Below the pieces are notes generated by a model. The model had not been told where the DNA came from, ran no database searches, and saw nothing but the letters and a program-made list of their open reading frames with translations. A DNA stretch of 64,000 nucleotides. It comes from a virus. Positions 53,955 to 58,674 of this stretch are shown here, piece by piece. The stretch is taken from positions 1 to 64,000 of IMG/VR virus record IMGVR_UViG_3300031951_000093; one strand, 5' to 3'. A program made the translations under genes and the position numbers. Every line of letters starts with the position of its first letter. The first letter of the stretch is position 1.

Positions 53955-55109
53955 ATGGCTCGCGGCGGCAGATCAGGCAAAAAGCGGACCCAATACGTCC
54001 GCGACGCGCAGGGGCAGTTCGCCTCAACACCAGGCGGTGGCAAAAAGGCCACACCTAGCGCCGTCAGGAAAGCCGCTAAGGCCGCTACGCTGAAGGGCGG
54101 CACACTAGCAGCCAGAACATCCCTGAGGAAGTCCAGGGCCAAGCTCAAGGGCATCGACAAGGCGGATCCAACCCTTCAAACTTCACTATCAAAACGTGCA
54201 CAGAAAGGTGCCGTAACTCGTGGCAGCAAAAATCTAACCAAGACGATTAAGTCAAGCCGAACACGACTGATTGGTGCTAAGCCTAACGCAAATACAATCA
54301 AGAAAAAGCGGCCAGCTTCGATGGCTCACGTCTTGAAAGATGTGACTCGTTCAATGTCGCCAGATGATGCGCAACGTGTACTAGGGAAGAAGCCACTTGC
54401 AAAGCGAAAAATCAACGCAACCGTTAAGACGAGCACAATTAAGAAGAAGCGCAGTCCTATACTTGAAGCTAAACCATTACAAAAGCCAGCGGCTGAACGT
54501 CCGGGCTCGATGACTTCTATCTTGAAAAATACGCTACGCACACTAGCTCAAGCTGATGCGCAACGCATAAGAGAAATTGAATCAATTACAGGGCAAAAAA
54601 TTAAGCCAATTAAGCAGCGTGCTGCCGCTATTGCCGCTGGAGATCGCGTCAGGAGCACGGTCAAGGGCGGCAAGGTTGCGGATACCCTGCGGGCGGGTCT
54701 TCGTGAGCTGGCGCAGAGCGATGCCAGGACCATGCGGGAAATGTCAAAGATTGTGAAGGATGCGACGCCTAGGGTGGGCGGAGCGAAGGGAGAGAATAGT
54801 ATCAAAGAACTCGCGAAGCCTAAATTGAAACGCGAACCAAAAACAAAATCTGACATAATAAAACAAACTCGAAGAATTATTGAAAAAGCAAGTGCACGAA
54901 AAGAGAAATCCATGTATTCATACGTTATATTCAAGAACGAAAAACGAATTAAAAATGCTACAAAGATTAGAGAAGCAATATTCAACCCACCAAAGCAAAA
55001 AAAACAAAGACAAAAGCGGGATCCATCGCGCCCTACTAGCAAACAGCTTGCAATACGAAGATGGCATGCATCTATGGATGCATGGAATAGAGCCCAAAGA
55101 ATGATCTAA
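53955..55109 (+). CDS. Lys/Arg-rich basic protein, paralog 1
   Basis: YVRDAQGQFASTPGGG...AVRKAAKAATLKGG N-terminus shared with the ORFs at 60983 and 61901. Confidence 0.75.
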   Translation: MARGGRSGKKRTQYVRDAQGQFASTPGGGKKATPSAVRKAAKAATLKGGTLAARTSLRKSRAKLKGIDKADPTLQTSLSKRAQKGAVTRGSKNLTKTIKSSRTRLIGAKPNANTIKKKRPASMAHVLKDVTRSMSPDDAQRVLGKKPLAKRKINATVKTSTIKKKRSPILEAKPLQKPAAERPGSMTSILKNTLRTLAQADAQRIREIESITGQKIKPIKQRAAAIAAGDRVRSTVKGGKVADTLRAGLRELAQSDARTMREMSKIVKDATPRVGGAKGENSIKELAKPKLKREPKTKSDIIKQTRRIIEKASARKEKSMYSYVIFKNEKRIKNATKIREAIFNPPKQKKQRQKRDPSRPTSKQLAIRRWHASMDAWNRAQRMI

Positions 55110-55504: not shown

Positions 55505-57400
55505 ATGGCAACCATAGGCGACCAACAGCTAGCACTATCTGACGATTATGCCGAAGCATTAGATATGCTAAGCAATCGTGCGGTTGATAATACCAAAGCG
55601 GCCTTAGTGCGATCACTTAAGCGTACCTTAAAAGATCTGCGCCGATACTATTCAGATTTCATTGATCCTGAGCTGAAAAAATATCAATCAGCCGATGGCA
55701 AGATGCGTCGCCCAATGTCATATTCTATCGCTGATAGTAATGCCAAAATGGTTAAGCTTCTTCAGATTGCGCAAGAATACTTTCCAGAGCAAGAATTGAA
55801 TCGTATCACAGCACAATATAAGAAAGATTTTGGCGAAGCCGTACAGCTTGGCGGTGATTTGGGTAAAGAATTGGCGCAATTAGTTGATTCTGATGGCAAA
55901 GGGAATAGCATGTTTGTTGGCGCCAGTAAAGAAGCTGTGATCGGCGCCGCTAACACAGCATCAGCTTATATCAGGCGCGAAGTTGAAACTTTTCGTGATG
56001 ATATTGCACGCATTGTGCAGGATGGTATTGGACGCGGGAAAAGCTCTAAAGCATTAGAGAAAGATATAAGAGTTGCACTATTGGGTGCAAAGGATCCAAA
56101 TAATATCACACCTAAATTAGGTCTTCTTCGCCGGGCTGAATTGATTGCAAGATCTGAGCTTGCTAATGCTTATACTGGTGCGCAAAAAGCAGCCGCAGCG
56201 CGTAATGGGTATAAGTATGGGAGGTTTATTACAACACAAGATGAAAGGACTTGTCCGTATTGCGCATCTAGGCATGGTAAGATATATTTGTTAAGTGAAA
56301 TGACTGGAACTTTGCACCCTAGATGCGTCTTGGGTGATACAAAGGTTTCCCCTGGGCCTTTCTCTGCGGTTATGCGCGGCTGGTACCGGGGCAACATCGT
56401 AACCATAAGACTTGATGATGGGAGCAGCCAATCCGTCACCGGCCATCACCCAGTGTTGACGACTGATGGAATCAAGCCCGCTTGCGCTCTCAGCAAGGGT
56501 GATAATTTGATTGGTGATCGCATTAATATCCTCTCTGATTCCTGCTCTGAACCAGACTTCCACCAGGTGCCAGCCTGCGCCGAGAACATATTTGCGGCGC
56601 TTGTTCAATCTGGCGCCATGCCTGCCGTAAGCGTGCCAGTTTCCCCCTTGGATCTCCACGGCGATGGAGTGTGTATTGATGGCAAGATCGAGATTGTAAG
56701 GTCCACAAGCCTTCTCGAAGGTTACTGGAAAACCGCGACAGGCAAGAATGCTGGCGAGGGCAATAGCGCGAGTCGATACATGGCTTTTAGACAGTTCTCT
56801 ACCTTGCGCCTGCCTGATCTGACGATCCTCGGGCTGGGGGGTGCCGCGTGTGGCAGCATGAGCATTCTGAGTGAGGCGCAATCTGTCCTCGCGGGAGGAT
56901 TGAGCCATGCGGAGATACATAGAATCACTACGTCCGCGTGGCGTAATCCCTCGCTCACGCAACCTGTTGTCAATGACACTTCGACTAACAAAAAATTGCT
57001 CGGCAAGTGCTTTGACGCTTTTCCCGGACTCGTACAGACTCACAATATCATCGACATTCAGATGAGCGAATTTTCTGGTCATGTTTACAGTTTTGAAACA
57101 TTTTGTGGCTACTATTATACAGGATCCCAGTCAAGGATCGTTAACCAAAATTGCCGATGCAGCCTATCTCCAGTTTCTGATCTTGCAGTAGAAGAAACTG
57201 ATCCCGAATTGCGCCGTGAATTATTAAGGGAAGACTTTTGGGAGAAGGAACGGAATAATGTATGGAAAAAGTTTGCCGATACTAAAGAATGGCCATTTGA
57301 AAAGGCTTCTAAAGTATTAGAAGATCACCTTAAAAAGCCATCTGCCAGTGAGAAACGGCTTTATCCTGACATCAAGGAAGCTCCTAAGCCGGTTGCTTGA
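55505..57400 (+). CDS. MuF/SPP1 gp7-like head morphogenesis protein interrupted by an intein
   Basis: RAELIARSE and DERTCPYC; the HPR|CRC motif is split by a 276-aa insertion. Confidence 0.9.
   Translation: MATIGDQQLALSDDYAEALDMLSNRAVDNTKAALVRSLKRTLKDLRRYYSDFIDPELKKYQSADGKMRRPMSYSIADSNAKMVKLLQIAQEYFPEQELNRITAQYKKDFGEAVQLGGDLGKELAQLVDSDGKGNSMFVGASKEAVIGAANTASAYIRREVETFRDDIARIVQDGIGRGKSSKALEKDIRVALLGAKDPNNITPKLGLLRRAELIARSELANAYTGAQKAAAARNGYKYGRFITTQDERTCPYCASRHGKIYLLSEMTGTLHPRCVLGDTKVSPGPFSAVMRGWYRGNIVTIRLDDGSSQSVTGHHPVLTTDGIKPACALSKGDNLIGDRINILSDSCSEPDFHQVPACAENIFAALVQSGAMPAVSVPVSPLDLHGDGVCIDGKIEIVRSTSLLEGYWKTATGKNAGEGNSASRYMAFRQFSTLRLPDLTILGLGGAACGSMSILSEAQSVLAGGLSHAEIHRITTSAWRNPSLTQPVVNDTSTNKKLLGKCFDAFPGLVQTHNIIDIQMSEFSGHVYSFETFCGYYYTGSQSRIVNQNCRCSLSPVSDLAVEETDPELRRELLREDFWEKERNNVWKKFADTKEWPFEKASKVLEDHLKKPSASEKRLYPDIKEAPKPVA
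56291..57082 (-). CDS. HTH + Vsr/DUF559-like PD-(D/E)xK endonuclease encoded antisense to the intein (putative homing endonuclease)
   Basis: IVSLYESGKSVKALAEQFFVSRSVIDNRL HTH; YNLDLAI...IAVEIQGGNWH...GWHLVEVW nuclease motifs; TATAAT 31 nt upstream. Confidence 0.8.
   Translation of the reverse strand: MTRKFAHLNVDDIVSLYESGKSVKALAEQFFVSRSVIDNRLRERGITPRGRSDSMYLRMAQSSREDRLRLTQNAHAATRGTPQPEDRQIRQAQGRELSKSHVSTRAIALASILACRGFPVTFEKACGPYNLDLAINTHSIAVEIQGGNWHAYGRHGARLNKRRKYVLGAGWHLVEVWFRAGIREDINAITNQIITLAESASGLDSISRQHWVMAGDGLAAPIIKSYGYDVAPVPAAHNRRERPRGNLCITQDASRVQSSSHFT
56324..57151 (+). mobile_element. intein (Hint domain), 276 aa
   Basis: Block A CVLGDTKV, block B VTGHHPVLT, block F GHVYSFET, C-terminal VNQN followed by +1 Cys; removal restores HPRCRC. 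Confidence 0.92.
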
Positions 57401-57828: not shown

Positions 57829-57891
57829 TTGGTTTGTTTCAGGATGCACAATCTCGCGCATCCTAAATTCCACCTATTAACAAAAGGTTTT

Positions 57892-58194
57892 ATGCCTGAT
57901 TCTGCATTCCTGCCGGTTGGCAATGGCAATGGCAATGGCTATGGCGATGGCTATGGCGATGGCAATGGTAATGGCGATGGCTATGGCTATGGCAATGGCT
58001 ATGGCAATGGCTATGGCTATGGCTATGGCTATGGCGATGGATATGGCAATGGCTATGGCTATGGCTATGGCTATGGCGATGGATATGGCTATGGCTATGG
58101 CTATGGATATGGCAATGGCTATGGCGATAGCAATGGCTATGGCTATGGCTATGGCGATGGCTATGGAACACCATCTATTAGGATTAGAAAATGA
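57892..58194 (+). CDS. Gly-Tyr/Asn/Asp repeat protein
   Basis: MPDSAFLPV(GX)nTPSIRIRK with X = Y, N or D. Confidence 0.65.
   Translation: MPDSAFLPVGNGNGNGYGDGYGDGNGNGDGYGYGNGYGNGYGYGYGYGDGYGNGYGYGYGYGDGYGYGYGYGYGNGYGDSNGYGYGYGDGYGTPSIRIRK
57919..58167 (+). repeat. hexanucleotide tandem repeat GGC(T/A/G)AT
   Basis: About 40 consecutive units seen directly. Confidence 0.95.
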
Positions 58195-58674
58195 AGGTCA
58201 AAGAATTGGCTAAATGGCTTGCATCCTTTGAGGATCAAGACGCTGAAGTGGAAGTGATAAGCCATTTACGCGGAAGCAGTTATTATGATCAAGGCGGCAC
58301 TGCAACCACAGTGCCATTAGACGTAGAAAAGCACATAACCTATACTGACTTGCGCGGCAATCCATTTATTGAGGAAGGCTGTTCATATCATGGATTACGT
58401 ACGCTACTGATGGGCGAATTGGACGCCTAAAACCAAACTCATTCTACCGAGCATCATCATGATTGGATTTACAGCAAAAGAAAAAGCAACTATAAAAATG
58501 TATGGGAAAAGAGCGACGATTATCGGCAGGCTCGCATGTCCCGTGATCGGAGTGTTTGCCTTTTTTGCGCCAGGCCTTGCCACATACCTGATTGTAAAGA
58601 TAATCAGGGAGAATCCAGAGCATTTTGTGAGTGATTAAACGTCAGGGGAAAATAACAACAACCGCCTCTGCCAC

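Follow-up and report, generated by a model that had tools for sequence, protein, structure and literature searches.

A mobile intein in a phage MuF gene that very probably carries its homing endonuclease on the opposite strand

We analysed a stretch of 64,000 nucleotides (positions 1 to 64,000 of the IMG/VR virus record IMGVR_UViG_3300031951_000093; hereafter the window) in which a MuF head morphogenesis gene is interrupted by an intein. This is very probably a mobile intein of the class 1 type whose homing endonuclease is a separate protein of 263 amino acids, with a helix-turn-helix (HTH) module and a Vsr-like nuclease core, encoded on the antisense strand of the intein itself. The anatomy of the element, the folds modelled for both proteins, the frame selected in each region, the expression signals embedded in relatives and the footprint of a recent transfer carry this reading. 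It had been proposed from the letters of the window alone (the original prediction), and fold, conservation, codon statistics, the promoters and ribosome-binding sites of the family and the homing footprint all agree with it. The predicted layout, a 276-residue intein in MuF with a 263-codon minus-strand open reading frame (ORF) in exact codon register and an ATG opposite a CAT codon, was found at every coordinate given:

55505-57400, plus strand: MuF / SPP1 gp7-like head morphogenesis (minor capsid) gene, encoding an intein-containing precursor of 631 amino acids (ORF, PF04233, PHROG)
56324-57151, plus strand: intein of 276 codons between the HPR and CRC of the conserved MuF motif, starting CVLGDT, containing TGHHP and GHVYSFET, and ending QN, then CRC
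56291-57082, minus strand: antisense gene for an HTH + Vsr-like nuclease (putative homing endonuclease), 263 amino acids plus stop, an uninterrupted ORF

The antisense ORF (57082-56291) is codon-aligned with the MuF sense frame. It starts with an ATG (57082-57080) that, read from the plus strand, is the CAT codon of His253 in block F of the intein, and its stop codon (56293-56291) lies in the N-extein. In the sense protein, Pfam placed the MuF domain (PF04233) at residues 166-273 (E 6.5e-11), and the best PHROG was phrog_15127, a head protein (2.3e-29). The virus record that holds the window has 79,993 bases and a CheckV rating of 100% complete, with the MuF gene in single copy.

The intein boundaries are fixed by the intein-less orthologues, which are 355 amino acids long (631 minus 276) with HPR-CRC uninterrupted. 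A search with the N-extein gave 111 MuF proteins, the intein-less orthologues among them being 94-59% identical. The closest two (P0023 and P0024) are 94 and 93% identical over the whole protein, and in an alignment of eight sequences the gap separating HPR from CRC measures exactly 276 residues. The splicing blocks are as follows:

56324-56326, plus strand: block A Cys1 (TGC), nucleophile of the N-terminal splice junction; all 53 aligned inteins have C1
56438-56449, plus strand: block B T39-G-H-H42 (TxxH); H42 is invariant and T39 near-invariant in the same alignment
57077-57100, plus strand: block F GHVYSFET, recognized from the sequence; the His253 codon CAT (57080-57082) is the antisense ATG
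57149-57154, plus strand: block G terminal Asn276, then the +1 Cys of the C-extein; N276 is invariant in the same alignment

A Cys nucleophile is thus present both at position 1 and at position +1 (57152-57154). The penultimate intein residue is Gln in the window and Ser in most relatives, and His is absent there; a penultimate His is dispensable in some inteins. A profile built from 53 related inserts matched solved inteins at blocks A/B and F/G with E-values down to 1e-10, and the insert has the Hint fold of a class 1 type intein. No LAGLIDADG or HNH match was found in the sense protein in Pfam, as the original prediction had said of the central region, and the Intein_splicing match was weak. 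In the AlphaFold model of the sense protein, residues 130-228 had a predicted local distance difference test score (pLDDT) below 50 and residues 76-129 were modelled with moderate confidence; an ESM Atlas look-up with sense residues 70-135 gave no usable match. We infer that the MuF precursor is spliced because this is an essential head gene in a genome rated as complete.

The protein read from the other strand gave a clear fold. AlphaFold, using a 67-sequence alignment, returned a mean pLDDT of 85, with residues 10-225 confident (mostly >90) and the tail at 231-259 disordered. The top Foldseek matches were the Escherichia coli Vsr structures 1vsr and 1cw0, the catalytic domain of I-Bth0305I (3r3p) and the DUF559-like 3hrl, each with a probability of 1.00 and a template modelling (TM) score on the target of 0.50-0.78. 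Together with the Pfam matches to HTH_7 and HTH_58, these models uphold the proposal of an N-terminal HTH followed by a Vsr/DUF559-type core. The two domains are:

56954-57055, minus strand: N-terminal HTH DNA-binding module, antisense residues ~10-43 (HTH_7 and HTH_58 Pfam matches)
56543-56731, minus strand: nuclease core, antisense residues ~118-180, with invariant N130, D132, E143 and H150

The HTH module was also matched by profile to the tandem HTH of 2lvs and to a resolvase HTH, and its modelled helices span residues 10-18, 23-30 and 34-43. In the core, strands were modelled at 121-126, 129-135, 140-146 and 172-178, and the profile alignment to 3hrl reached E 2e-4. By this alignment D132 (56689-56687), E143 (56656-56654) and H150 (56635-56633) fit the Asp, acidic and His positions of the composite EDxHD motif. 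Residues N130, D132, E143, G146, G147 and H150 were invariant across the 67 antisense sequences, and E96 was near-invariant; the D/E/H residues identified in the core, whose loss would have counted against a nuclease, are conserved.

Pfam also matched the antisense protein to REase_MTES_1575 (PF18741) at E 1e-5, under the curated cut-off, with 25.9 bits against a gathering threshold of 38.2. Most homologues of the window nuclease carry a precomputed PF18741 label; the window nuclease itself resembles this family but is not assigned to it. There were 22 homologues in the protein collection, down to 36% identity, and 426 related stretches in viral contigs. Most of the protein homologues (P0005-P0019, P0021 and P0022) have 278-298 amino acids, P0021 having 359, and carry an extra N-terminal HTH repeat of ~45 residues that is absent from the 263-residue protein of the window and its nearest relatives. 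The DNA-binding module thus exists in one-repeat and two-repeat forms.

To determine which strand is under selection, we compared the best 80 of the related viral loci (35-99% identity to the nuclease) and used 52 non-redundant inteins for the selection, codon and expression-signal tests. In all 80 loci the register-matched opposite frame was open over the whole match and continued into a MuF-type host gene of 405-1451 amino acids. Both frames therefore stay open among the homologous MuF inteins, as a dual-coding element demands. Every locus with readable boundaries shared the insertion site HPN/C...N/CRC of MuF.

Because sense codon position 1 is the antisense wobble position, the two frames predict opposite patterns of variation. 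For intein residues 61-129, sense position 1 was more variable than position 3 in 54 columns and less variable in 14 (sign-test p 1e-6). For residues 130-240 the corresponding counts were 97 and 14 (p 2e-16), and over residues 61-240 together position 1 was the most variable in 151 columns versus 28. Changes synonymous only in the antisense frame had values of 0.23-0.25 over residues 61-240, against 0.05-0.06 for changes synonymous only in the sense frame (~4 to 1). In the splicing lobes both patterns were reversed and the sense frame was favoured. These codon statistics show the antisense frame as the one selected over intein residues 61-240 and the sense frame as the one selected in the splicing lobes, which answers for the central region the question raised with the original prediction.

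The central sense frames were free of TAA, TAG and TGA in all 52 relatives, where 11.6 open frames were expected from the extein codon usage of each phage. In the window extein, TTA and CTA make up 43% of the Leu codons and TCA 22% of the Ser codons, and none of these occurs among the 28 antisense Leu/Ser codons; from this usage the probability that the sense frame would be open over the central 180 codons is ~1.3e-5. Judged by these codon frequencies, openness of both frames by chance is excluded.

The same approach was applied to the antisense C-terminal tail where it runs over the N-terminal splicing lobe. Sense codons that act as antisense stops were enriched at residues 1-3 (29 seen, 8.2 expected) and completely absent from residues 27-60 (0 seen, 42.7 expected). 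A tail open by chance was considered; this holds only for sense residues 1-26, a stop-enriched segment, and fails at 27-60. Therefore, the antisense protein is required up to about its residue 227. The antisense segment opposite block B is confidently folded (strand 210-214 in the model), and the Thr39 codon is ACC in 50 of the 52 relatives because the same bases encode antisense Gly215. Some 34 codons (sense residues 27-60, including block B) are thus kept open, and appear to be under constraint, in both directions.

In a codon-aligned antisense register the middle bases pair, so that hydrophobic codons of the nuclease (middle T) would give hydrophilic codons in the sense frame (middle A), and three codons per strand would have to be avoided for the other frame to stay open. 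Middle-base pairing and the small number of forbidden codons may be the reason why this register is found in all 80 loci and why the passenger, as we call the central sense segment, is acidic and mostly disordered. In some loci the antisense frame was open far upstream of the nuclease start, extending through the host gene on its opposite strand, for up to 1246 codons (L014, 1-3738, plus strand; L035, 2314-3726, plus strand; L078, 1243-2493, plus strand). The host genes there have ~61-67% G+C, and these long frames are probably chance open frames in GC-rich DNA.

One short motif in the passenger departed from this pattern:

56657-56665, plus strand: sense motif H112-G113-D114 (CAC GGC GAT), with conserved codons in 52 relatives

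H112 was CAC in 52/52 relatives, G113 was GGC in 50/52 and D114 was GAY in 52/52, and three GenBank isolates recovered by tblastn agreed. Residue 115 was always Gly or Ala, while the opposite antisense residue 139 varied among Pro, Arg and Ser, and opposite the motif the third bases of antisense Val142 and Ala141, although fourfold degenerate, were frozen. The sites that vary are precisely those at which the sense residues are preserved; from this codon comparison, H112-G113-D114 looks like a motif of the passenger region that is selected as sense protein. We considered two causes at the nucleotide level. A terminator-like hairpin (56654-56669) requires GGA at codon 115 for its stem, which only 8 of the 52 relatives have. 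A purely nucleotide-level cause was rejected, since the variation that is seen (GAY, and G or A at residue 115) keeps the sense residues while antisense residue 139 is free.

The moderate AlphaFold confidence at sense residues 76-129 may be a mirror of covariation imposed by the antisense protein, the modelled secondary-structure elements opposing those of the nuclease core. The claim that the sense frame is kept stop-free only so that splicing can occur is thus accurate for most of the central frame, which appears to be just kept open, and does not extend to the ~34 doubly constrained codons or to the invariant H112-G113-D114. A more ambitious combination is possible, though we regard it as rather doubtful: the whole cassette would be written opposite blocks G, F and A, ~34 codons around block B would be structured in both proteins, and opposite the catalytic strand of the nuclease the sense frame would hold a motif under selection in its own right (H112-G113-D114, then Gly or Ala). 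If so, the passenger of the excised intein would be functional and might act, for example, in metal-dependent control of splicing or in cooperation with the nuclease.

To identify how the antisense gene might be expressed, we looked for signals upstream of its start. The antisense ATG fell at the block-F His column in 38 of the 52 relatives, with GTG in a further two. A GGAG-type ribosome-binding site preceded the start in 40/52, and this is the reverse complement of the block-F Asp-Leu-Gln codons. A −10 hexamer with at least five of six matches was found upstream in 45/52, compared with 5.8 ± 2.2 in control windows. A full TTGACA-N17-TATAAT promoter scoring at least 10/12 was present in 18/52, nine of them perfect, compared with 0.6 in controls, and the −35 starts 2-5 nt inside the 3′ end of the intein. 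These promoter hexamers explain an excess of antisense stop triplets in residues 253-276. In most cases the antisense gene ends at intein codon 2-3, its TAA or TAG being the reverse complement of a Leu TTA or CTA codon. In the relatives, therefore, promoter, ribosome-binding site, ATG and stop all lie inside the intein. The window carries part of this arrangement:

57114-57119, minus strand: perfect −10 hexamer TATAAT, preceded directly by TG, 37 nt upstream of the antisense ATG (from the sequence and the family comparison)
57129-57134, minus strand: TTGACT, a −35-like hexamer 9 nt from the −10 (from the sequence; relatives have TTGACA with a 17-nt spacer)

The window TTGACT is probably not functional as a −35 as such. 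A consensus promoter scan of the window found no minus-strand promoter; it missed the antisense promoter because the window −35 is mis-spaced. The window ORF also runs 10 sense codons beyond the 5′ boundary of the intein, into the N-extein, whereas most relatives stop at the usual place.

Two viral contigs (L116 and L087, the same as L002 and L001) provide a record of movement. Their intein is 99.8% identical to that of the window over 828 nt (~2 differences). Identity in the upstream DNA and N-extein is only 76-77%, and it reaches 89-91% in the 100 nt adjoining the intein on either side. So few differences despite flanks that have diverged by ~24% indicate a very recent transfer. The reciprocal pattern was seen with an intein-less contig (L084), which is 96-100% identical to the window across MuF and falls to 71-88% only within a stretch of ~240 nt that surrounds the insertion site. 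The Arg immediately before the site (56321-56323) is encoded by AGA in the window and by CGC in the intein-less alleles L084, L085 and L086, and the closest intein-less proteins, P0023 and P0024, show a patch of altered residues that lies 14-28 codons upstream. The codon difference and the patch are either a co-conversion tract or target-site variation. The identity footprints are those that would be expected from double-strand-break repair with co-conversion.

Some observations weigh against a mobile intein with an antisense homing endonuclease. The block-F Asp (F:4) is replaced by Ser in the window, and with the penultimate Gln this could mean reduced intein activity. Measured against the signals of the family, the window copy has neither a correctly spaced −35 nor a Shine-Dalgarno sequence. 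In the sequence alignment, no residue of the antisense protein clearly corresponds to the final Asp of the composite EDxHD motif. The transfer footprint is evidence that the unit moves, rather than evidence of the enzyme that moves it. Antisense transcription, nuclease activity, the nuclease target and splicing are likewise things that we infer.

These points lend some weight to other explanations. It is improbable that the antisense nuclease is real and yet not a homing enzyme, acting instead in inter-phage competition, in attack on host DNA or in repair, with the dispensable loop of the intein serving as a safe harbour. Folds of the Vsr/DUF559 type do occur in repair and restriction proteins as well, and one residue of the composite motif is not evident. 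However, each of the 80 best relatives was found in this intein at this position in MuF, and the borders of the intein enclose the entire cassette exactly. Intein and gene move together between diverged phages with co-conversion-like flanks, and for related Vsr-like enzymes a homing function has been demonstrated or predicted (PMC3239194, PMC2677866).

Still less probable, in our view, is that the window copy is decaying, so that the intein splices while the antisense gene is no longer expressed or active. Such decay would fit the missing −35 spacing and ribosome-binding site, which many relatives have, and the loss of the usual stop at intein codon 2-3. Against it, all the family-invariant residues are intact, the −10 hexamer is perfect and the near-identical copy in a phage with such diverged flanks implies a very recent transfer. 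Finally, the idea that the antisense ORF is a by-product of an often-open codon-aligned frame, with a real domain in the sense centre, can appeal to the general scarcity of stops in such frames, the moderately modelled residues 76-129 and the H-G-D motif, but is already refuted by the comparative data, given the wobble pattern and synonymous-change counts over 180 codons, the known nuclease fold on the antisense side (pLDDT 85) against a pLDDT below 50 for sense residues 130-228, and the complete absence of antisense-stop codons where 42.7 were expected.

With a mobile intein and an antisense homing endonuclease, the cycle would run as follows. The late MuF transcript would be translated across the whole insert, and the Hint lobes (~residues 1-66 and 238-276) would splice the precursor. 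The central sense residues (mostly ~130-228) would be a hydrophilic, mostly unstructured passenger with only stop codons to avoid. The nuclease would be transcribed from signals in the C-terminal coding blocks of the intein, and its translation would start at the ATG opposite the His codon of block F. The enzyme would presumably cut intein-less MuF alleles at or near the HPR/CRC junction during co-infection, and recombinational repair would copy the intein, the nuclease gene and some flanking extein into the cut allele.

The antisense-nuclease intein is already in the literature, and the MuF locus is not a new principle. Gosselin, Arsenault and Gogarten (bioRxiv 10.1101/2025.01.02.630785, October 2025 version) described antisense VSR-like endonucleases in full inteins of actinobacteriophages, with minor capsid proteins among the host genes and an in-frame centre without recognisable structure; the antisense protein was matched to 1CW0 and 3R3P, and horizontal spread was inferred. 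The window belongs to the same type, with a contiguous intein, an antisense VSR-like endonuclease ORF and a minor capsid host gene. It differs in that its ORF, rather than lying between the splicing blocks, also overlaps blocks B and F, and in coming from an uncultivated 80-kb phage that is not an actinophage. By tblastn, members of the family were also found in Salmonella, Pseudomonas, Vibrio and other phages. The text of that preprint makes no mention of a promoter, Shine-Dalgarno sequence, ribosome binding or codon register. What the present analysis appears to add is therefore the embedded promoter, Shine-Dalgarno sequence, ATG and stop with their exact nesting, the codons under double constraint, a quantitative account, by codon position, of how selection is handed over between the strands, and the H-G-D sense motif.

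Antisense LAGLIDADG endonucleases in the DnaX intein date to Gorbalenya 1998, as cited in the same preprint, and Phillips, DeSimone and Gogarten (bioRxiv 10.64898/2026.09.14.751524) analysed frame-specific selection in that intein. The DnaX intein of Synechocystis and other cyanobacteria is alike in that the endonuclease is in another frame or strand than the splicing domain, with purifying selection on the endonuclease frame and a host frame that is merely open. It differs in having a LAGLIDADG nuclease, a dnaX host gene and a cellular genome. In the 'fractured genes' of Dassa et al. 2009 (PMC2677866), which are found mostly in phages, the halves of a split intein are separated by a free-standing gene for a Vsr-like homing endonuclease. 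There too an intein houses a putative Vsr-like homing endonuclease with its own control elements; the host gene, and the intein with it, is divided into two genes with the endonuclease ORF between them. The window intein is unbroken because its nuclease occupies the antisense strand in a register free of stops.

I-Bth0305I (Taylor et al. 2011, PMC3239194; PDB 3r3p), the prototype of the EDxHD homing endonuclease family, shares with the window nuclease an N-terminal DNA-binding region and a C-terminal Vsr-like catalytic domain (Foldseek probability 1.00, TM 0.62 on the target). Sequence similarity between them is marginal, with a weak profile match (E 0.03). Unlike the window protein, in which the last Asp of the motif is not evident, I-Bth0305I is encoded on the sense strand, in a group I intron. 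The canonical bifunctional inteins PI-SceI, PI-PfuI and PI-PkoII differ in having an in-frame LAGLIDADG domain within the same polypeptide.

A blastn search with the MuF gene against GenBank phages gave no match, and relatives were recovered by tblastn. Gordonia phages Affeca, Fosterous and Vivi2 have a homologue of the window nuclease antisense within MuF, as do many Salmonella Jersey-type and Pseudomonas phages. Salmonella phage PK2 (L082, PV446483.1) has two nested 'hypothetical protein' coding sequences, 1426-2235 and 1712-2113, opposite its head morphogenesis gene; the longer is the antisense nuclease, and among the inspected records only PK2 annotates the ORF. In the other listed GenBank records, including most of the Jersey-type phages, the matched stretch is annotated just as the head gene or as a hypothetical protein, so that the nuclease gene and the intein go unmentioned for at least 108 isolates and for hundreds of viral contigs. 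Metagenome pipelines (JGI) had called 22 homologues, some of them named as a very-short-patch-repair endonuclease or a transposase. The expectation that gene callers would miss the ORF thus applies to the listed GenBank records other than PK2 and is contradicted by the metagenome calls.

Other features of the window surround the MuF gene. Immediately upstream (53955-55109) is an ORF of 384 amino acids that is extremely basic, Lys/Ala-rich and histone H1-like. Directly downstream (57829-58213) is a Gly/Tyr/Asn/Asp-rich low-complexity ORF of 121 amino acids with GYGNGYGDGYG repeats, the repeat DNA being open in two more frames, a MAMAMA frame and, on the minus strand, an HSHSHS frame. One MuF protein 60% identical to that of the window derives from a cyanobacterial metagenome bin.

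The element thus combines ~250 codons read in both directions, a measurable hand-over of constraint between the strands, and regulatory signals written into the catalytic blocks of a protein. This makes the antisense-nuclease intein a clean natural system for the study of overlapping coding. It also supports the idea that free-standing endonuclease genes invade mini-inteins, and its compact Vsr-like nuclease with an HTH reader is a possible scaffold for DNA targeting.

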